Below the pieces are notes generated by a model. The model was not told the DNA's origin. It made no database searches and worked only from the letters and a program-made list of their open reading frames with translations. The position numbers and the translations under genes were made by a program. Positions 187 through 11,135 of a stretch of 11,181 bases of DNA are shown here, in pieces. Within the stretch, counting starts at the first letter, position 1, and each line of letters opens with the position of its first letter. Origin of the DNA: a virus; the IMG/VR virus record IMGVR_UViG_3300045988_085326, positions 128,001-139,181 of that record. One strand, given 5' to 3'.

Positions 187-450
187 ATGTTAAAACCGTA
201 TGTTATTACAGCAACACATGGTAAGCATGAACAAAACCTCCCTCATGATTTATATGTTTTAAATCGTGAAGGATATTATATGAATGAAAGAGAAAGACAG
301 TTACAAGATATTATTTTTAAAGTAAAAAATTATCCAGATGATGTAATACCAAATTTGGTTTTTTATGCTATTTGTAAAGAATGCGGAATTTCACCATATA
401 GTATTACTAATGCGGAAATGACGCGTATTCAAAACGCGATTAAAGGCTAG
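187..450 (+). CDS. hypothetical protein (87 aa)
   Basis: The ORF track starts at TTG 178, but ATG 187 sits 10 nt after the purine-rich aagaaaggaa (167-176). Promoter copy 1 is upstream. Confidence 0.6.
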   Translation: MLKPYVITATHGKHEQNLPHDLYVLNREGYYMNERERQLQDIIFKVKNYPDDVIPNLVFYAICKECGISPYSITNAEMTRIQNAIKG

Positions 451-546: not shown

Positions 547-957
547 ATGGCAGAAGTAAAGGTAACTAAAAAGGATTGGTATGCTCAGATTAGAGCGGTA
601 GTTGAGGCATCTGATAATGAGCAGAAGGAAGGTATTCTTGGTTTTATTGACCACGAAGTTGAATTGCTTGAAGCTAAGGCAGCTAAGGCAGCAGAGAGAG
701 CGGCTTCTAAGAAGGCTGACGGAGATGAGCTTCGTAATGCAGTACAGGCTGTTTTGACTGATGAGTTACAGACTATTGATGCTATTACGGCTCAGATTGA
801 GGGCGAGGATATCACCAAGGCTAAGGTAACTGCAAGACTAACTCAGTTAGTTAAAGCTGGAGTTGCAACTAAAGACATGGTTAAGACCGAGGATGGTCAT
901 AAGGTAACAGCATATAAGCTGGGTTCTGGCGATGTAGAAGAGGAAGTAACTGAGTAG
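547..957 (+). CDS. hypothetical protein, 136 aa, Ala/Glu/Lys-rich, acidic C-terminus
   Basis: Strong RBS aaaaggagaactaac before ATG 547. Codon usage is noticeably GC-richer than the neighbouring genes. A terminator follows. Confidence 0.75.
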   Translation: MAEVKVTKKDWYAQIRAVVEASDNEQKEGILGFIDHEVELLEAKAAKAAERAASKKADGDELRNAVQAVLTDELQTIDAITAQIEGEDITKAKVTARLTQLVKAGVATKDMVKTEDGHKVTAYKLGSGDVEEEVTE

Positions 958-1905: not shown

Positions 1906-2388
1906 ATGGAATTAAAAGGTGTAATAGCAATTAATAATATATTAAATGAGTTCTTAGAGCAATTTGATTGTTCCGCGGATATTGGCGAGGATTTCTGTTA
2001 CTGGGAACGTACAAACGAAATCAACTATGCTTTTGTTGTAGCTTCAAACAACGATGTATGGTTTAAGGAGTTCGCTCATAGCTTAATGCCGAATCTTAAC
2101 TGTGATATTTTTCTTTTGTCTCTTTTTCATGAGATTGGTCATCATGAAACTATTGATGATATAGAAGATGATGTATTGAGAGAATGTTGGAAAGTTAAAG
2201 GTGAGTTAAATCAGAAGAAGACTTTTACAAAAGAAGATAACTTCAGATATTTTAATTTACCAGATGAAAAAGCTGCAACTGAGTGGGGACTTCAGTATAT
2301 GATTGACCATAAAGCAGAAGTTGCAGACTTGTGGAGAAAATTACAGCCTGCTATACTTAATTTTTACAGGCTGAATGACATCCATTGA
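1906..2388 (+). CDS. putative HExxH zinc metallopeptidase-like protein (160 aa)
   Basis: Contains LFHEIGHHET (HExxH). RBS agagagg sits 8 nt before ATG 1906. Size and motif fit the small phage-encoded ImmA/IrrE- or SprT-like metallopeptidases; the family itself is not established. Confidence 0.6.
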   Translation: MELKGVIAINNILNEFLEQFDCSADIGEDFCYWERTNEINYAFVVASNNDVWFKEFAHSLMPNLNCDIFLLSLFHEIGHHETIDDIEDDVLRECWKVKGELNQKKTFTKEDNFRYFNLPDEKAATEWGLQYMIDHKAEVADLWRKLQPAILNFYRLNDIH

Positions 2389-2779: not shown

Positions 2780-2905
2780 ATGGAAATGGAAAAGATAGCA
2801 AATGAGTTTTGGAAACAACATAGAGGGCAAGGAAGAGTTGTAAAAGTGAATAGTTATTCGTTTATCTGGGAAACATTACCCGATAAGAATGGCAACACTA
2901 AATAG
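2780..2905 (+). CDS. small hypothetical protein (41 aa) missed by the 60-aa ORF cutoff
   Basis: Strong RBS taaggagaaattatctATG; ORF MEMEKIANEFWKQHRGQGRVVKVNSYSFIWETLPDKNGNTK* fills the gap between two CDSs. Confidence 0.4.
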   Translation: MEMEKIANEFWKQHRGQGRVVKVNSYSFIWETLPDKNGNTK

Positions 2906-3463: not shown

Positions 3464-3536
3464 GCGGAGGTACCCAAGTGGTGATGGGGCTGTTCTTATA
3501 AAGCAGTTGCCGTGAGTTCGATTCTCACCCTCCGTA
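3464..3536 (+). tRNA. tRNA, 73 nt, anticodon TAT (reads AUA; Ile-UAU type)
   Basis: Acceptor gcggagg/cctccgt (G1·U72). Anticodon stem ctgtt/agcag, loop cTtTATaa. T-arm gtgag-ttcgatt-ctcac. Confidence 0.65.
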
Positions 3537-3538
3537 CT

Positions 3539-3659
3539 AAGAAGGTAGCTCAGATGGGAGAGCGCCTGGATAAAGAAAATGGATTAGATATAATCCGAAA
3601 CTGCAACTCTTTTTTCTAAAGGGACCAGGATGTCGTGGGTTCGAGCCCCACCCTTCTTA
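3539..3659 (+). tRNA. tRNA gene interrupted by a ~48-nt insertion in the anticodon arm (121 nt total; isotype unresolved)
   Basis: Perfect acceptor aagaagg/ccttctt. D-arm tagctcagatgggagagc. T-arm gtggg-ttcgagc-cccac. The anticodon stem halves cctgg (3565-3569) and ccagg (3625-3629) are separated by 55 nt containing the hairpin ggatta-GATA-taatcc. Confidence 0.55.
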
Positions 3660-3662
3660 TTT

Positions 3663-3787
3663 GGCGAGATAGCGGAATGGAAAGACGCACCGGAACCCAA
3701 TCGGGTTTAGGAATAAACCATCGCGGCACTACGGACTTAAAATCCGGCGACTTCAGTGTCATGTAGGTTCGAGTCCTACTCTCGCCA
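3663..3787 (+). tRNA. tRNA-Leu(TAA), type II, interrupted by a 41-nt insertion between the 5' anticodon-stem strand and the loop (125 nt total)
   Basis: Acceptor ggcgaga/tctcgcc, discriminator A. D-arm gcg-gaatggaaaga-cgc. ccgga (3690-3694), then 41 nt (with hairpin ggttta-GGAA-taaacc), then loop cTTAAaa and tccgg. Long variable arm. T-arm gtagg-ttcgagt-cctac. Confidence 0.6.
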
Positions 3788-3879
3788 CTATAAAAATTAA
3801 AGGAGAAATATTATGCGCTGGTTAGGCGGACGAAGAAAATTTGATATATGGTAAATTAACTTTTAAGGAGGAAATTATT

Positions 3880-4473
3880 ATGTATCAAATTGAAAATAAA
3901 AGTGATATTTTTGTAGAACATTATGTAGGACGATTTCGTCGTACATATAAAATTGACCGTATTGGAACTGAAAAAAATCTGATTGTGTATCTTGCAAATG
4001 GGTTTAAATCTTTTAGTTATTATGATAGTTATGATAACTGGAATGATTATGGTTACATGGGATATGGCAATTCTCGTTTTGCTGAGCATTTTTTTGATGG
4101 TTATGGTAGAGATATAAACGGATATGCCTATAAAAAAGATGCTTGGACATATTATTGTCAATATATTCGCGGTAAAGAGACTAAGGTCAAAAAAGATTAT
4201 TCTTATTGGCGTAGAAATCAAACTTATAAAGGCACTTTTAGAAGAACACCAGTAGAAGGAATACATAAATGGCGCGGAGGTCCATCTGTCCGCCCTCGTC
4301 ATATTAAACAGATTAAAGTTCTGTATGCAAATCCTGAATATAGAGAGTTTAATAGAGGCAGCCATAAAGAAGTTCCTAATGGTTGGTGGGATGATTGGCA
4401 TCGTTGCAAAGAGAAAAATTGGAAATCTCAAAGTAAAAGACGCCATCAATGGAAAGGGGATGTTAGTATGTAA
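3880..4473 (+). CDS. hypothetical basic protein, 197 aa, very rich in Tyr/Trp/Arg/Lys
   Basis: RBS ttaaggagg 7 nt before ATG 3880 (the track's ATG 3841 lacks an RBS). Composition resembles CDS 10722..11135 and the split ORF at 4501. Confidence 0.6.
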   Translation: MYQIENKSDIFVEHYVGRFRRTYKIDRIGTEKNLIVYLANGFKSFSYYDSYDNWNDYGYMGYGNSRFAEHFFDGYGRDINGYAYKKDAWTYYCQYIRGKETKVKKDYSYWRRNQTYKGTFRRTPVEGIHKWRGGPSVRPRHIKQIKVLYANPEYREFNRGSHKEVPNGWWDDWHRCKEKNWKSQSKRRHQWKGDVSM

Positions 4474-4500
4474 TACTTTATAAAAGGAGGTATTGCAACT

Positions 4501-4764
4501 ATGTCGAAGTCTTACAAAAGGTTCCCAATAGTAAGATAGGAAACAGAAGATTATCGTTATCTGAACCGGCAACTCAGACATGATAAGCTTGCGGAAATTC
4601 CAAAAGGAAGCTCATACAAGAAACTTAATACAAAAGCACATGAATGGGCATACAGATGGAGCAGAGAACAAGCTATTCAAGATTGGAATGAGAATACTTG
4701 GATAAGAGAAAGATATTCCTATGATGAATGGATGAATTATTGGAATTCTTTTTTAAGAAAATAA
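4501..4764 (+). pseudogene. RBS-led ORF (12 codons) interrupted by in-frame TAG at 4537-4539, then 74 more open codons to TAA 4762-4764. Either a nonsense-disrupted gene or a TAG-readthrough gene.
   Basis: aaaaggaggtattgcaactATG, then MSKSYKRFPIVR-TAG-ETEDYRYLNRQLRHDKLAEIPKGSSYKKLNTKAHEWAYRWSREQAIQDWNENTWIRERYSYDEWMNYWNSFLRK*. The downstream part has no start codon or RBS of its own. Confidence 0.4.
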
Positions 4765-4845
4765 TTTTTGACCATTTGATTATTTTTTACTTGTTCTGAT
4801 AGTTTTTGAGTTTTTCGCAAACAACTAGAAGAAAGGTATGAAAAA

Positions 4846-5691
4846 ATGAAACTAAGAAGAATTATTGCGGCAGGAATTTTAATTTATTCCTTTATTATTT
4901 CGCCTTGTGCGTTAGCCTTAGAAAGTCAACCTGCGGAAGTAGCAGTTGAAAGCGTCTCTATTCCAGATAAAAGTAGAATAGAGACAGCAATTCCACAGAT
5001 AAGAGAAATTGAGACAAATTTGGTTAAACAACAAGAGACAGAAGTAAAAGAAAATGAAACTTATAAAGAGGTGTTTGATTATGTTTATACGACAAAGCGT
5101 GTGAACATACGAACTTATATTGGAACTGAAAGTGATATATTATTAACTGCGGAAGCAGGAACTAAATTACAACGAGTCGGAATTAATGTAACAACTGGTT
5201 GGGATTTAGTAAGAATAAATAATTGTGATTATTATATTTCAAATGAATATATTACGACTGAGAAACCAGAACAATTAGCTGATAGTATAGAACAGCAATT
5301 AGAAGATAGTAAAATTTCAGCATCAGATTTACGCTATATGTCTGCTATAATATGGGCAGAAGCTGGTAACCAATGTGAAGCAGGACAGCAAGCAGTTGGT
5401 ATTGTAGTAATGAATAGAGTAGCATCAGAAACATATAAAGATACTGTTTATGATGTTATTAATGAACCTTATCAATTTTCTCCAGTTAAAAATGGTTCTT
5501 TTGCAAAAGCTTTAAATTATTATGATAGCGGAGAAATGCCAGAATGTGTTATAGATGCAGCTAAATATGCTTTACATAGTAATACAACTGTAAATTATAA
5601 TGGTACAACGTATGACCTTGATGGTTATTTATGTTTTAGTAGATATGTAAAAAATGCTAAACTTACTATTCAAGACCATATGTTTAAGTGA
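4846..5691 (+). CDS. secreted cell-wall hydrolase: signal peptide + SH3b-like domain + SleB/CwlJ-type (Hydrolase_2) domain; probable endolysin
   Basis: N-terminal MKLRRIIAAGILIYSFIISPCALA looks like a signal peptide. The central RVNIRTYIGTESDILLTAEAGTKLQRV...GWDLVRI block resembles SH3b. C-terminal IWAEAGNQ...GQQAVGIVVMNRV...VINEPYQFSPV resembles the SleB-family signature AEARGE...AVA.VV.NRV...QF. Confidence 0.75.
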   Translation: MKLRRIIAAGILIYSFIISPCALALESQPAEVAVESVSIPDKSRIETAIPQIREIETNLVKQQETEVKENETYKEVFDYVYTTKRVNIRTYIGTESDILLTAEAGTKLQRVGINVTTGWDLVRINNCDYYISNEYITTEKPEQLADSIEQQLEDSKISASDLRYMSAIIWAEAGNQCEAGQQAVGIVVMNRVASETYKDTVYDVINEPYQFSPVKNGSFAKALNYYDSGEMPECVIDAAKYALHSNTTVNYNGTTYDLDGYLCFSRYVKNAKLTIQDHMFK

Positions 5692-5705
5692 TACTTGGTT
5701 TTATA

Positions 5706-5745
5706 CTTATGCTCTTATCCGAGTTAAACGGAGCATAAGAATTTT
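5706..5745 (+). terminator. hairpin (9-bp stem cttatgctc/gagcataag, 16-nt loop) + AATTTT; putative terminator / processing hairpin directly 5' of tRNA-Trp
   Basis: Inverted repeat 5706-5714 / 5731-5739 just after the stop of CDS 4846..5691. Confidence 0.4.
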
Positions 5746-5818
5746 AGGTCTCTCGTCTAGTGGTCTAGGATAGCGGTCTCCAAAACCGTTGACCAGGGTT
5801 CGAATCCCTGGGGACCTG
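5746..5818 (+). tRNA. tRNA-Trp(CCA)
   Basis: Acceptor aggtctc/gggacct. Anticodon arm gcggt-cTCCAaa-accgt (ccggtctccaaaaccgg-like, as in bacterial tRNA-Trp). T-arm caggg-ttcgaat-ccctg. Confidence 0.85.
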
Positions 5819-5832
5819 TTTAAACTTCTTAA

Positions 5833-5861
5833 TTGATTTTATATAAAAATTTTGATAAAAT
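5833..5861 (+). promoter_or_regulatory. sigma70-like promoter copy 5 (TTGATT-17-TGaTAAAAT)
   Basis: aaTTGATTttatataaaaatttTGaTAAAATatttatacaaaacaaaagg. Confidence 0.65.
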
Positions 5862-5891
5862 ATTTATACAAAACAAAAGGAAGTGGTAGAA

Positions 5892-6212
5892 ATGAATAAA
5901 GTAAAATATTTTATTTGGGTAGATGATGAAAGAGTTTTACCTCATTATATTGATGGGATAGCAGAAAATTTCATAGTTTGTAAAACTTATAAGCAAGCTA
6001 TTAATGCTCTTGATACTTATTGTGCTATTGGCAATGTATATCTTGATTTAGACCATGATTTAGGTTGCAGACAGAACGGATATGATATTGCAAAATATAT
6101 AGTAGAGAATCAGATGCCTTTATATGGTTTTTCTTGTCATTCATTTAATCCTGTTGGTAGAAAGAATATTGAAGATTTACTCCAGCATTATGGATATAAG
6201 AAAGGAATATAA
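5892..6212 (+). CDS. hypothetical protein (106 aa)
   Basis: RBS aaaaggaag ~8 nt before ATG 5892 (the track's GTG 5883 overlaps the RBS). The YFIWVDDERVLP...VYLDLDHDLG stretch loosely recalls a receiver-like fold; not assignable. Confidence 0.6.
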   Translation: MNKVKYFIWVDDERVLPHYIDGIAENFIVCKTYKQAINALDTYCAIGNVYLDLDHDLGCRQNGYDIAKYIVENQMPLYGFSCHSFNPVGRKNIEDLLQHYGYKKGI

Positions 6213-6216
6213 AATC

Positions 6217-6333
6217 ATGGGGTTAGGCTTGTTTGTAGGCGGGATTGCTTTGGGATTTATTGGTGGTTTTGTTGTAATAACAGTAATTGCTTTTAAGATT
6301 GTAATTAATGATTTTAATGATTTACCTATATAA
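6217..6333 (+). CDS. small hydrophobic peptide (38 aa, single predicted TM helix)
   Basis: agaaaggaatataaaatcATG, then MGLGLFVGGIALGFIGGFVVITVIAFKIVINDFNDLPI*; lies directly downstream of CDS 5892..6212. Confidence 0.4.
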   Translation: MGLGLFVGGIALGFIGGFVVITVIAFKIVINDFNDLPI

Positions 6334-6337
6334 TTAT

Positions 6338-6366
6338 TTGAATTTTTAAAAAATTTTTGATATAAT
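6338..6366 (+). promoter_or_regulatory. sigma70-like promoter copy 6 (TTGAAT-17-TGaTATAAT)
   Basis: atTTGAATttttaaaaaatttTTGaTATAATatatatatgataagaaag. Confidence 0.7.
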
Positions 6367-6374
6367 ATATATAT

Positions 6375-6545
6375 GATAAGAAAGAAATAAGAAAAAGGGT
6401 TGAGAGTATTATTTCTTATAAAGATTTTTCAAACCAGAAACCCTGAGTTTAATAAGGAAGTGTGAGTATTATCACCGCATTCATTTGTTAAGCAACAGAC
6501 CACGGGAAACTAAGAAGTGCTGTATAGGAAAAAATTCTTATCAAA
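6375..6545 (+). ncRNA. candidate short non-coding transcript driven by promoter copy 6 (no ORF; internal hairpins agggtt..aaccct and gtga-gtattat-tcac; GAGTATTAT direct repeat)
   Basis: Promoter copy 6 upstream, promoter copy 7 downstream. No ORF over 10 codons with an RBS. Confidence 0.3.
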
Positions 6546-6554
6546 AGTTTTTAA

Positions 6555-6583
6555 TTGATTTTCAAAAAAATTTATGATATAAT
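6555..6583 (+). promoter_or_regulatory. sigma70-like promoter copy 7 (TTGATT-17-TGaTATAAT)
   Basis: aaTTGATTttcaaaaaaatttaTGaTATAATatatacataaagaaaaag. Confidence 0.75.
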
Positions 6584-6757
6584 ATATACATAAAGAAAAA
6601 GAAAAAAAGATTTTGTAAAGACACTTGTTCCTGCAAATGCGAACAAATAACAGATATTAAAGAAAGTGTTAAAAACACAACGCGGTAGATTTACATATGG
6701 CATATGAGTTGGTATCCGCTATAATAACAAACTCGTTGCTAAGTGTCTTGTTTATTT

Positions 6758-6831
6758 TGGACCGTAGCTCAGCTGGTAGTAGCATCTGACTGTTAATCAG
6801 AGGGTCGTGGGTTCGAGCCCCACCGGTCCAG
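6758..6831 (+). tRNA. tRNA-Asn(GTT)
   Basis: Acceptor tggaccg/cggtcca. Anticodon arm tctga-cTGTTaa-tcaga. T-arm gtggg-ttcgagc-cccac. About 165-nt leader from promoter copy 7. Confidence 0.85.
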
Positions 6832-6857
6832 TTTTATCAATTATTTGATAAAAGTTT
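6832..6857 (+). terminator. hairpin ttttatcaa-TTAT-ttgataaaa (9-bp A/T stem) directly 3' of tRNA-Asn; possible terminator or processing site
   Basis: Perfect inverted repeat; followed by gtttagagttt. Confidence 0.35.
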
Positions 6858-7121
6858 AGAGTTTAAGCTAGAAAAACTTAGGTTTTAGAGATTGCGGAAC
6901 GTGTGTTTCCTCACTTAGTTGACCTGTTAGAAATTGAAAAACTTAAAGATGTCTGCATACGTCGCGAAAGGTTGGTTTTCGAAATGCGTGAAAAAAACAA
7001 AAACAAGTAACTTAGGTACCAAGTTGCGAATCCTGTCAGGCTATGAGAACAGTTGTGAATGGCTGCAAAGAAAAAGCACAATGGGATATGAAGAAAAATA
7101 AAACTGGGAATATTCTTCAAA

Positions 7122-7150
7122 TTGATTTTTTAAAAAAATTATGATATAAT
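7122..7150 (+). promoter_or_regulatory. sigma70-like promoter copy 8 (TTGATT-17-TGaTATAAT)
   Basis: aaTTGATTttttaaaaaaattaTGaTATAATatttatataagataaagatag. Confidence 0.75.
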
Positions 7151-7168
7151 ATTTATATAAGATAAAGA

Positions 7169-7241
7169 TAGTTATTCAGTTGGTGAGCGGCTGATGCTTC
7201 AATTAGCCATCAGCCGAGAGGTTCAATTCTTTAATAACTAC
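7169..7241 (+). ncRNA. non-canonical tRNA-like element at the 5' end of the promoter-8 transcript (8-bp acceptor-like stem, 8-bp internal stem with 11-nt loop containing UCA)
   Basis: tagttatt (7169-7176) pairs with aataacta (7233-7240). ggctgatg-cttcaattagc-catcagcc spans 7189-7215. D-loop-like cagttggtgagc and T-loop-like gg-ttcaatt-c are present, but no canonical D- or T-stem. Confidence 0.3.
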
Positions 7242-7300
7242 TATGGTTTGGCGGTGATGTTCGTCCTCAAACATAAAACCGATGCTACCGCGGCGGATAT

Positions 7301-7374
7301 CGCTCCTTCGTCTAAATGGTAAGGATAGAAGCCTCTCAAGCTTCAGATGCTGAGTTCGAGTCTCGCAGGAGTGA
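7301..7374 (+). tRNA. tRNA-Glu(CTC)
   Basis: Acceptor cgctcct/aggagtg (G2·U71). Glu-type D-arm tc-gtc-taaatggtaag-gat. Anticodon arm gaagc-cTCTCaa-gcttc. T-arm ctgag-ttcgagt-ctcgc (one mismatch). Confidence 0.65.
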
Positions 7375-7444
7375 TTTGTTTTTCTAATTTTTTGTAACCT
7401 CTCTTAATAAGGATTGCGGTTATCCCTTCTAATTAGCCGCCTGA

Positions 7445-7518
7445 CGCCCCATCGTCTAACTGGTCTAGGATATCAGCCTTTCACGCTGGAGATACGGGTT
7501 CGAGTCCCGTTGGGGTGA
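7445..7518 (+). tRNA. tRNA-Glu(TTC)
   Basis: Acceptor cgcccca/tggggtg. D-arm tc-gtc-taactggtctag-gat. Anticodon arm tcagc-cTTTCac-gctgg (the classic CTTTCAC Glu loop). T-arm acggg-ttcgagt-cccgt. Confidence 0.85.
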
Positions 7519-7703
7519 TTTTCTGTAAAGCTACTTAAAGATTTTGTATAGTTGCTAGTGACTTGCTAAACATAAGTAGATAAATCAGAATGACTGTTTT
7601 GCGGCTGCTAGAAAACCGTTTTCTCAATAGGAGGAAAAGCGAGGATAAAATCTCCTATTCTTAGATGAGAGGAAAATGCTAAGCATGTGGCTGCGTTAAT
7701 AGC

Positions 7704-7729
7704 TACTAGAGAGTCATGAATCTCTAGTA
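7704..7729 (+). other. hairpin tactagaga-gtcatgaa-tctctagta (9-bp stem) 7 nt upstream of the tRNA at 7737
   Basis: Perfect inverted repeat. One of several hairpins placed immediately 5' of tRNA genes here. Confidence 0.5.
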
Positions 7730-7736
7730 AAATATC

Positions 7737-7806
7737 GCGGGGTAGAGGAGTGGTTCCTTGCTAGCCTCATACGCTAGAGACGTGGGTTCGAATCCCACCC
7801 ACCGCA
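7737..7806 (+). tRNA. tRNA with anticodon CAT (Met/fMet-like; 5' CGCGGGG motif), imperfect acceptor stem
   Basis: D-arm gagg-agtggtt-cctt. Anticodon arm ctagc-cTCATac-gctag. T-arm gtggg-ttcgaat-cccac. Acceptor gcggggt vs ccaccgc pairs only 5/7; the boundaries are uncertain. Confidence 0.55.
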
Positions 7807-8296
7807 ATCAGAAGTTGACGGATGTAGAGGTTCTGCAGAACGCTTTACATGAAGGCTTCAGAAGTTGCTCAACTTATGAATGAGATACCTTTGGCAGAAG
7901 TTAAAGGGTAACTGCTTCCAGCGGCGGGATAGAGTCGCACTGACATTACTCTTTCGAGGGAGGAGAAAGAGGGCTTGAGCCAGAGCGCATAAACCAAGTG
8001 CCTAAATCTTGGAGCGATAGATACTGGTGCTGTCGCCAACATAAAGTTGTTTATTTCGTTCCATAAAGCGGATTAGTGTAAAATGGTAATTAGCACGATT
8101 GCCTTATAAAGCAATAAACGAAGGTGTACCAATCCTTCATCCGCAGGTATGTAGGAGATATATCGTAGGTTTTACATCTTGTTTGTCCTGTAAGTCGGTA
8201 ACTTAGTTATTTGGTTTCAAAAAACAAGATTATTTTTTCCCCTCTTTCTGCGGAGGCTATATGGTGTAAAAATAACAGCATACCGCTTAAAATATC
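7807..8296 (+). other. ~490-nt non-coding block, GC-richer than its surroundings, with CAGAAGTT x3 direct repeats (7809, 7859, 7895), a 10-nt palindrome TTCTGCAGAA (7830-7839) and several hairpins
   Basis: No ORF over 20 codons in any frame. Bounded by the CAT tRNA and promoter copy 9. Confidence 0.4.
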
Positions 8297-9586: not shown

Positions 9587-9753
9587 CTCTGTTAGGGTTT
9601 GGAATCCCTTTAACTCAACCGAGGCAGAACTAGAAGAAACCTTGCAAGGATATATAAATTATTTTATTAAACTTATTTTATGAAATGGGTCGCCGTATTA
9701 ATATTATAGCATATAAAATTTAGAAGACAACGGCGACAAAAAGATTAATTATT

Positions 9754-9829
9754 CGCAGTATAGCTCAATCAGGTAGAGCGCTCCCATTGTGGAGGGAGAG
9801 GCTATGAGGTTCAAATCCCATTGCTGCAA
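9754..9829 (+). tRNA. degenerate tRNA-like gene (good D-arm and T-loop, no clean anticodon arm or T-stem); possible pseudo-tRNA
   Basis: tagctcaatcaggtagagc D-arm and ggttcaaatcc T-loop. Acceptor cgcagta/tgctgca carries a C1·A72 mismatch. The middle (ctccc-attgtgga-gggag) gives an 8-nt loop, and the T-stem tgagg/cccat does not pair. Confidence 0.35.
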
Positions 9830-9964
9830 TTTGACGAACGGTAGGCTGCGGGTCCTGAGTCTTAGACCAAGACCTCGTCCTAGGAAGCGGCGTTCCTACT
9901 AGTCATTATCATAAAAGATATTCCTTTCAAAGTATTTTCCATGCGGAGATTATCTTCGCAATTT

Positions 9965-10721: not shown

Positions 10722-11135
10722 ATGGCACTTCACAATAGAAGATATTATCGTATCCAAAGACAAAAGCACATCAATCGAAAGAAAAGAATTATTAAAGAAC
10801 AAAATAATTATTGGCACTATGAACATGAAGGTGTTCTTAATAAAGGAAAAATTCATTGCGGTTGTGGAATGTGTAGAAGCAAAACTAATAATAAAGGTAA
10901 ACACCGTTTAATACATGGAAATTATGCTCCTTCAAAAAATTGGAAACATTCTGATAAACAAAAGATAGAAAGTATGAACACGGCAATCGCTGATTATGAG
11001 CGCGAGATAACTGAAATTGAAGCGCTTGGAGCCTACTTTCCGCGACAGTTCAATGCTTTTGAATATTATGATGATGCGAATTGGGCATATGAAAATGAAC
11101 TTCTTGAAAAAATGATTGCAGATTTACCTGATTAA
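10722..11135 (+). CDS. hypothetical basic protein, 137 aa (Arg/Lys/Tyr/Trp-rich N-terminus, HCGCGMC motif, acidic C-terminus)
   Basis: Perfect RBS aaggagg 5 nt before ATG 10722. The track's ATG 10653 lies inside tRNA-Ser. Composition resembles CDS 3880..4473 and the split ORF at 4501. Confidence 0.65.
   Translation: MALHNRRYYRIQRQKHINRKKRIIKEQNNYWHYEHEGVLNKGKIHCGCGMCRSKTNNKGKHRLIHGNYAPSKNWKHSDKQKIESMNTAIADYEREITEIEALGAYFPRQFNAFEYYDDANWAYENELLEKMIADLPD

Follow-up and report, generated by a model that had tools for sequence, protein, structure and literature searches.

In gut phages, the reading of the amber codon TAG as glutamine (code 15) has been described for crAss-like phages, Lak phages and phAss-1 of the proposed genus Phassvirus (bioRxiv 10.1101/2021.08.26.457843; PMC9523058; PMC10607447), and has been confirmed by proteomics (PMC9523058). 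phAss-1 carries TAG in 41 ORFs and encodes three tRNA-SUP-CTA genes (PMC10607447), and in gut-phage groups the recoding status differs between close relatives (PMC10607447; bioRxiv 10.1101/2021.08.26.457843). The locus described here can also be compared with dispensable accessory genes of phages that have become young pseudogenes or carry natural nonsense alleles of the CAG>TAG type. Here as there, a single C>T at a Gln codon truncates the product, the rest of the ORF and the orthologues are intact, and other strains carry different knock-outs; the difference is that the present allele is known from metagenome assemblies alone.

The locus lies in an 11,181-nt stretch of IMG/VR record IMGVR_UViG_3300045988_085326 (positions 128,001 to 139,181), the whole of which is called the window and whose own positions are used below; its G+C content is 35.7%. 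The source is an uncultured human-gut tailed phage, which probably uses the standard genetic code, and the contigs of its relatives are 72-144 kb long and contain a large tRNA array. Within the window, an 87-codon gene is interrupted at codon 13 by an in-frame TAG, which is probably a genuine nonsense allele, a C-to-T change having converted Gln13 to a stop so that the gene appears to have just been broken. Of the options raised in the initial annotation (amber readthrough or recoding, a programmed stop, a recent nonsense mutation and a sequencing error), the recent nonsense mutation is best supported, given the presence of CAG in sister strains, the lack of a suppressor, the use of TAG as a stop and the TAA/TGA knock-outs of the same gene. 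The locus resembles the code-15 gut phages in having TAG at a conserved Gln, a human-gut source, relatives with contigs of about 100-140 kb, a large tRNA array and distant, DUF2828-sharing relatives that are recoded and encode tRNA-CUA. It differs from them in that TAG is found in one conserved gene and one tiny ORF (against the 41 TAG-bearing ORFs and three tRNA-SUP-CTA genes of phAss-1), in that the window and its clade have no suppressor tRNA, in that TAG is a true terminator, and in that near-identical strains have CAG. The features of the interrupted gene and its surroundings are as follows.

2780..2905, + strand: small ORF ending in TAG 2903-2905, a second derived CAG>TAG; 41 aa here
3880..4473, + strand: upstream 197-aa Tyr/Trp/Arg-rich gene; syntenic neighbour with no detectable paralogy
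4486..4490, + strand: Shine-Dalgarno core GGAGG, read directly; kept in L001, L002 and L003
4501..4539, + strand: translated stub, ATG plus 11 more sense codons (MSKSYKRFPIVR), then TAG
4537..4539, + strand: premature amber codon, formerly CAG (Gln13), through C>T at 4537
4540..4764, + strand: remnant codons 14-87 plus TAA, read as untranslated; 93% protein identity to P0001
4846..5691, + strand: cell-wall hydrolase gene (Pfam Hydrolase_2) on the downstream side, preceded by an RBS of its own; conserved neighbour

The gene structure given in the initial annotation, namely an ATG at 4501, 12 codons, TAG at 4537-4539, 74 open codons and TAA at 4762-4764, agrees with the sequence. The ribosome-binding site aaaaggagg that it placed at 4486-4494 is present but lies at 4482-4490, with 10 nt between the GGAGG core (4486-4490) and the ATG. 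Its statement that the remainder contains no internal start also holds, as the first in-frame ATG, GTG or TTG is a Met at codon 78 with no RBS, and no ORF of at least 30 aa is listed in the frame of 4501..4764. An open run of 74 codons would be expected by chance with a probability of 0.0023 from base composition, and stayed open at a rate of 0.0016 in shuffles of the region. The N-terminus encoded by the stub is identical or near-identical to those of the full-length homologues P0001-P0005, and the remnant matches P0001 over its full length, synteny included. Since homologues cover the readthrough product from end to end and synteny is kept, 4501..4764 is one gene and not two; the earlier view that the frame after the TAG is real coding sequence of one interrupted gene is thus proved by the full-length homologues, which contradict the scenario of a separate downstream gene with a non-canonical start. 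In the proposed course of events, a single C>T transition at 4537 would have turned Gln13 (CAG) to amber, and ribosomes would start at the conserved RBS and ATG, yield a 12-residue peptide and terminate. As no in-frame restart is available, the remaining 74 codons would be left untranslated, as a very young pseudogene remnant whose still intact state would reflect a recent lesion.

A large protein collection was searched with the readthrough product, Gln being placed at the stop, and 31 homologues of 86-92 aa were found that span the whole 87-aa product. In their alignment, position 13 falls within a conserved N-terminal motif. The initial annotation had proposed this position as a check for a conserved sense codon, and it is Gln in 28 of the 31 sequences, with Tyr, Leu and Thr in one each. 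By itself, this conservation fits recoding and a CAG>TAG nonsense mutation alike. Judged from its sequence, the predicted 87-aa product is a conserved, basic, aromatic-rich phage accessory protein. Pairwise dN/dS values of the gene range from 0.04 to 0.6, which, together with its conservation over 31 homologue clusters, shows that it is normally under purifying selection. Like NinE, a protein of the lambda nin region, it is small, basic and phage-encoded, and its residues 15-58 align to positions 13-56 of the 58 in the NinE profile (Pfam PF05322); however, the match (24.4-24.5 bits, E 2.4e-5) lies below the Pfam gathering cut-off of 25, and E<0.01 is reached by only 5 of the 32 members of the family. 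A PHROG search with the 87-aa protein gave no useful match, a PDB profile search gave a chance-level match only (E = 1), and the AlphaFold model of the family is poor (pLDDT 61.8) and confident only for the C-terminal helices. Neither a nucleotide search of GenBank phages with window positions 3800-5800 nor a tblastn search of them with the 87-aa protein returned a match, and the DUF2828 neighbour finds only Bacillus siphophages among cultured phages, at no more than 46% identity, so that the phage has no annotated close relative. The readthrough product had also been likened to the products of CDS 3880..4473 and 10722..11135. The likeness stands for composition and does not extend to homology, and paralogy with these Tyr/Trp/Arg-rich neighbours was rejected on BLASTP E values of 1.1, 24 and 0.045.

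To place the TAG among its relatives, DNA was compared from eight other lineages, whose nucleotide identity to the window is about 98% for L008, 97% for L100 and 96% for one IMG/VR contig (L007=L101=L110), about 86-88% for L098 and L099, and 85% for L001/L002. Codon 13 is CAG in the seven lineages that are at least 85% identical (L001/L002, L007/L101/L110, L008, L100, L098 and L099), and CAA in L003 and in all distant DNA homologues. Since relatives up to 96-98% identical carry CAG or CAA, the TAG at 4537-4539 is a derived, strain-specific state, produced by a single C>T. A three-way comparison polarises the change at 4537 as window-specific, and it is one of 63 such substitutions. Their spectrum is rich in transitions, C>T and G>A making up 33 of the 63, and is similar to that in sister lineages. 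The second derived CAG>TAG ends the small ORF 2780..2905, whose counterpart is 53 aa long in L008 and L100; strains 96-98% identical to the window have CAG at both the 2903 and the 4537 sites.

Apart from the window, the only sequence found to carry the TAG allele is ENA contig k127_20383 of ERZ919601 (L009), and a degenerate pattern allowing either allele retrieved CAG only, and no TAG, from IMG/VR and the metagenome collection. The ENA contig equals the window sequence except for an 8-nt tandem repeat, GAAATAAA, at about 493-520, which is present in two copies in the window versus three in the contig. In addition, a Logan contig of run ERR414233 is identical to the 3′ end of the window. This difference of one repeat unit and the identical Logan contig indicate that the window, like the ENA contig, probably derives from run ERR414233. 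When exact matches to the hydrolase and to a 160-aa protein were looked up, the sole results were two contigs, the ENA contig of 17.7 kb and a Logan contig of 2.9 kb, and a look-up of the 41-aa product of the TAG-truncated ORF returned no record. The assemblies of this strain break just past the window, the 17.7-kb ENA contig ending 63 nt beyond it, ahead of the stretch in which L001 and L003 have their Gln tRNAs; L093-L097, whose DUF2828 is 84-87% identical, were considered as a continuation of the same strain and rejected as other species.

An intergenic element of about 45 nt occurs in five copies in the window (at approximately 120-195, 2375-2450, 5820-5895, 6545-6620 and 7110-7185) and is also repeated in L001, L093 and L097. 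It carries a near-consensus extended -10 promoter (TTGATTTT…N…TGATATAAT); these elements are probably phage early promoters, and their repetition may explain the assembly breaks in the region. The IMG/VR contig L110 ends about 750 nt past the window in Illumina adapter sequence (AGATCGGAAGAGCACACGTCT), which may represent a physical DNA end or untrimmed adapter. Just past the 3′ end of the window, at L110 10560-11213, some 470 nt with an ORF of about 140 aa are inserted into an apparent tRNA gene and divide it in two.

Whether TAG acts as a stop in this phage can be judged from terminators, tRNA content and long genes. Two TAG terminators of the window can be compared with homologues.

448..450, + strand: TAG terminator of gene 178/190..450; the same TAG stands at the same position in the L001 homologue
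955..957, + strand: TAG terminator of gene 547..957; coincides in alignment with TAA, the stop codon of the 136-aa homologue in L003

The L001 homologue of the first gene ends …RIQNAIEG before its stop, and its sequence past the TAG differs from that of the window. For the second, the initial annotation had held that an ending in TAG-TAA argues against reassignment; the tandem (955-960) is insufficient alone, but the TAG at 955 is a true stop. The same annotation had seen no CUA-anticodon tRNA in the window, and indeed none is present among the 15 tRNAs predicted by ARAGORN and two insert-bearing tRNA-like genes. None of the anticodons CUA, UUA and UCA occurs in the window or in the arrays of L001 (23 tRNAs), L003 (18), L093 (17) and L110 (14), and the 8 tRNAs of L095 likewise include no CUA anticodon. 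The two tRNA-like genes at 3539-3790 were considered as hidden suppressors and rejected: ARAGORN with introns allowed gives the anticodons AAA and UAA, and no splice giving a canonical CUA loop was found. As to protein-coding genes, in-frame TAG in the window is found in one conserved gene and one 41/53-aa ORF, and in none of eight window genes of 103-281 aa. The late genes available from the clade are uninterrupted in code 11 (L040, 2024 and 502 aa; L093, 828 aa; L097, 452 aa), and in clade loci reading TAG as sense lengthens long ORFs no more than reading TGA as sense. The window and clade therefore show, of the marks of code 15, the alignment of TAG with Gln, and show neither tRNA-CUA nor many TAGs nor an avoidance of TAG as terminator; of the marks of a nonsense allele they show relatives one substitution away, full-length orthologues and the lack of an alternative start. 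On these sequence grounds, the clade shows standard-code behaviour.

The tRNA-like genes have several unusual features of their own. They are adjacent (3539-3659 and 3664-3790), carry short insertions, and are kept in L008, L100, L098, L001 and L003. The gene at 3539-3659 has a 48-54-nt insert in the anticodon loop (AAA by ARAGORN with introns), and L003 shows compensatory changes in its anticodon stem. The gene at 3664-3790 is class-II-like, with a 41-nt insert just 5′ of the CUUAAAA loop (UAA) and a U/G switch at position 34 in L100 and L098. Standard ARAGORN misses both genes, and the Rfam tRNA model matches 3539-3659 (49 bits). The tRNA at 9753-9830 has an 8-nt anticodon loop (ARAGORN 'tRNA-???', anticodon tgtg) and varies inside the loop, its counterparts being tatg in L110 and agtg in L001; this expanded loop recalls frameshift-suppressor tRNAs. 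The window gene 6757-6832 is tRNA-Asn(GTT), as in L110, and its counterpart in L001 is tRNA-Asp(GTC). Relative to L007 and L008, this gene has clustered substitutions in the acceptor stem (6761-6763/6825-6827) and the anticodon stem (6787/6789 and 6797/6799), whose positions suggest that they may be compensatory.

A wider view of amber recoding around this phage is provided by DUF2828, which is encoded a few kb downstream in L001 and L003 and through which 80 related IMG/VR loci (L012-L091) were collected. ARAGORN identified 31 tRNA-CUA genes in 28 of the 80 loci, as well as a single tRNA-UUA and ten tRNAs whose anticodon it called as the four bases 'taaa'. In the recoded relatives L015, L019, L021 and L023, reading TAG as sense adds 0.35-0.55 of the locus to long ORFs, and L021 and L012 have tail- or baseplate-sized ORFs of 688-1567 codons with 5-28 in-frame TAGs and no TAA or TGA. 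When late proteins of the clade were compared with the recoded loci by tblastn, no alignment extended across a stop. The wider DUF2828 family includes genuinely TAG-recoded phages, and their tRNA-CUA genes and TAG-rich late ORFs show that recoding is evolutionarily close by, at a DUF2828 identity to the window clade of no more than 68%. Phages from the gut and from the environment make up this large family, most of their contigs measuring 100-200 kb. Standard-code and TAG-recoded members are mixed in it, in agreement with what is published on gut-phage groups (PMC10607447; bioRxiv 10.1101/2021.08.26.457843), and the DUF2828 gene itself is free of in-frame TAG in L012-L091 except for one in L079.

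Evidence of gene decay comes from the same cluster. In L001 and L003-L006, the 87-aa gene sits between the 193/197-aa Tyr/Trp/Arg-rich gene and the Hydrolase_2 gene, inside the large tRNA array. In L008 this gene is broken by CAA>TAA at codon 57, and in the distant relative L105 two stops interrupt the copy, namely TGA at codon 46 and TAG at codon 50. A crude measure of ORF lengthening had suggested L105 as recoded, which was rejected because its real ORFs are free of TAG; since its copy of the gene bears TGA as well as TAG, this copy is a pseudogene. The orthologue of 3880..4473 is a pseudogene in L001 (9379-9984) and L002 (2186-2791), with the lesions TGG>TAG, two TGG>TGA and a 1-nt deletion; the two copies are identical, although they come from two independent samples. 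In the strain of the window, the loss of one nucleotide outside a homopolymer splits an AAA ATPase gene (L009, approximately 1272-2383) that lies some 3.2-3.9 kb before the start of the window; the gene is intact in the 97% relative L100 and in L003 (371 aa). This lesion is a frameshift, for which recoding cannot account. By comparison of these alleles, the 87-aa gene has been knocked out at least three times independently. Such repeated knock-outs imply that it is dispensable or at times counter-selected, and it appears to be one or the other; escape from a host defence that senses the 87-aa protein is a plausible, though speculative, reason.

The region also has an RNA-repair flavour. The window encodes a cREC_REC 'cyclic-phosphate processing receiver' domain protein (5883-6212), L001 has RNA_lig_T4_1 and RNA_ligase genes (6077-8175) in place of window gene 1906..2388, and the DUF2828 gene lies downstream in relatives. 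A weak match to YrlA (Y RNA-like) at window 3493-3592, with 28 bits against a gathering score of 69, overlaps tRNA-Ile and the next tRNA-like gene.

The explanation by a consensus or sequencing error, in which codon 13 would really be CAG and the gene unbroken, is unlikely. C>T is a typical damage or error type, and a consensus of poor quality could be the reason why 17.7 kb hold three disabling lesions, two of them CAG>TAG and one a 1-nt deletion; the spectrum of lineage-specific substitutions is nevertheless normal and resembles that of sister strains. No IMG/VR or JGI contig bears the TAG, and the agreement on it between the window and the ENA contig counts against an error, although both probably come from the same reads of run ERR414233. 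Moreover, the truncated product P0015 has two member sequences, and comparable natural nonsense alleles exist, as the L001/L002 pseudogenes identical in two samples attest. Also to be weighed is a programmed stop, in which a 12-codon leader followed by low-frequency amber readthrough tunes expression. The strong conserved RBS and the frame open beyond the stop are compatible with it; however, no homologue or sister strain stops at position 13, so the stop is not a conserved feature, and the base after it is G, UAG-G not being a notably leaky bacterial termination context. An Rfam search over the window found only tRNAs at gathering score, so that no known recoding signal was found downstream; this explanation is very improbable. 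We infer that translation really stops at the TAG at 4537 and that the strain truly carries this allele, as opposed to a faulty consensus.

The remaining alternative is that TAG is suppressed or recoded, being decoded as Gln by a tRNA-CUA elsewhere in the genome of this strain or its species, in a partial or early-stage form of code 15, so that the 87-aa protein is still made. The TAG falls exactly on a conserved Gln, as code 15 would predict, and a remnant without further decay fits continued translation equally well. The second derived CAG>TAG at 2903 points the same way, no TAA or TGA nonsense codon being seen in this strain; the chance that both nonsense changes are CAG>TAG (2 of 2, over all transition paths) is about 0.03, a post-hoc value from two events. 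The tRNA-CUA genes and TAG-rich late genes of related loci, the variation of recoding status among close gut-phage relatives, and the fact that each of the three TAG terminators of the window is backed by an in-frame TAA no more than 21 codons on are likewise in favour. The mutation pattern gives a rough likelihood ratio of about 3-20 for TAG tolerance, or of about 1-4 if the trait is species-wide, since three sister strains are without in-frame TAG. Against this stand the absence of tRNA-CUA from the window and the clade members examined, the CAG of 96-98% identical strains at both sites, the coincidence of TAG terminators with the stops of homologues and the clade late genes without TAG. In addition, the lesions that break this gene in L008 (TAA) and in L105 (TGA) are beyond the reach of an amber suppressor, and the frameshifted AAA ATPase shows plain gene decay in this very strain; TAA, TGA and frameshift lesions, not being rescuable in this way, speak for ordinary decay. 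Given these lesions and the low prior that follows from the lack of a suppressor tRNA in the clade, suppression or recoding is considered improbable. A special form of it, in which the strain stands at the very start of TAG-to-Gln recoding with a suppressor tRNA off-contig, its own or species-wide, is still less to be expected; if true, the substitutions CAG>TAG at 2903 and 4537 would have drifted into early or accessory genes as the earliest changes of an effectively synonymous kind, in a phage family in whose related lineages recoding has arisen.

A further peculiarity of the 87-aa gene concerns its synonymous divergence. Compared with L001 and L003, nucleotide conservation peaks over the ORF and equals that of the neighbouring tRNA genes, and dS is 5-7 times below that of flanking genes, with similar dN. 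The values are 0.13 against 0.69-0.87 for the neighbours in the comparison with L001, and 0.17 against 0.74-1.38 in that with L003. A nucleotide constraint throughout the family was considered as the cause and found unsupported: distant homologues vary freely at synonymous sites, which makes a family-wide RNA or DNA element unlikely. Recent horizontal exchange among lineages followed by nearly neutral change is the likelier, if speculative, cause of the low dS, and an unrecognised constraint at the nucleotide level is a possible alternative.

Under the preferred reading, that of a nonsense allele, the finding is of a known kind, a small phage gene having lost its function in a single strain. 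It calls for caution in annotation: where a gut-phage family is partly recoded, one isolated in-frame TAG that replaces Gln does not suffice for assigning code 15, and such a call needs the agreement of synteny, sister strains, terminator usage and tRNA content. If the minority reading of recoding were true, the locus would offer a rare view of a genetic code that is beginning to change. The recurrent knock-outs of the 87-aa gene (by TAG, by TAA, and by TGA plus TAG), set against its long-term conservation, make it a candidate for a conditionally costly accessory gene, the cost arising, for example, when the 87-aa protein is sensed by a host defence.
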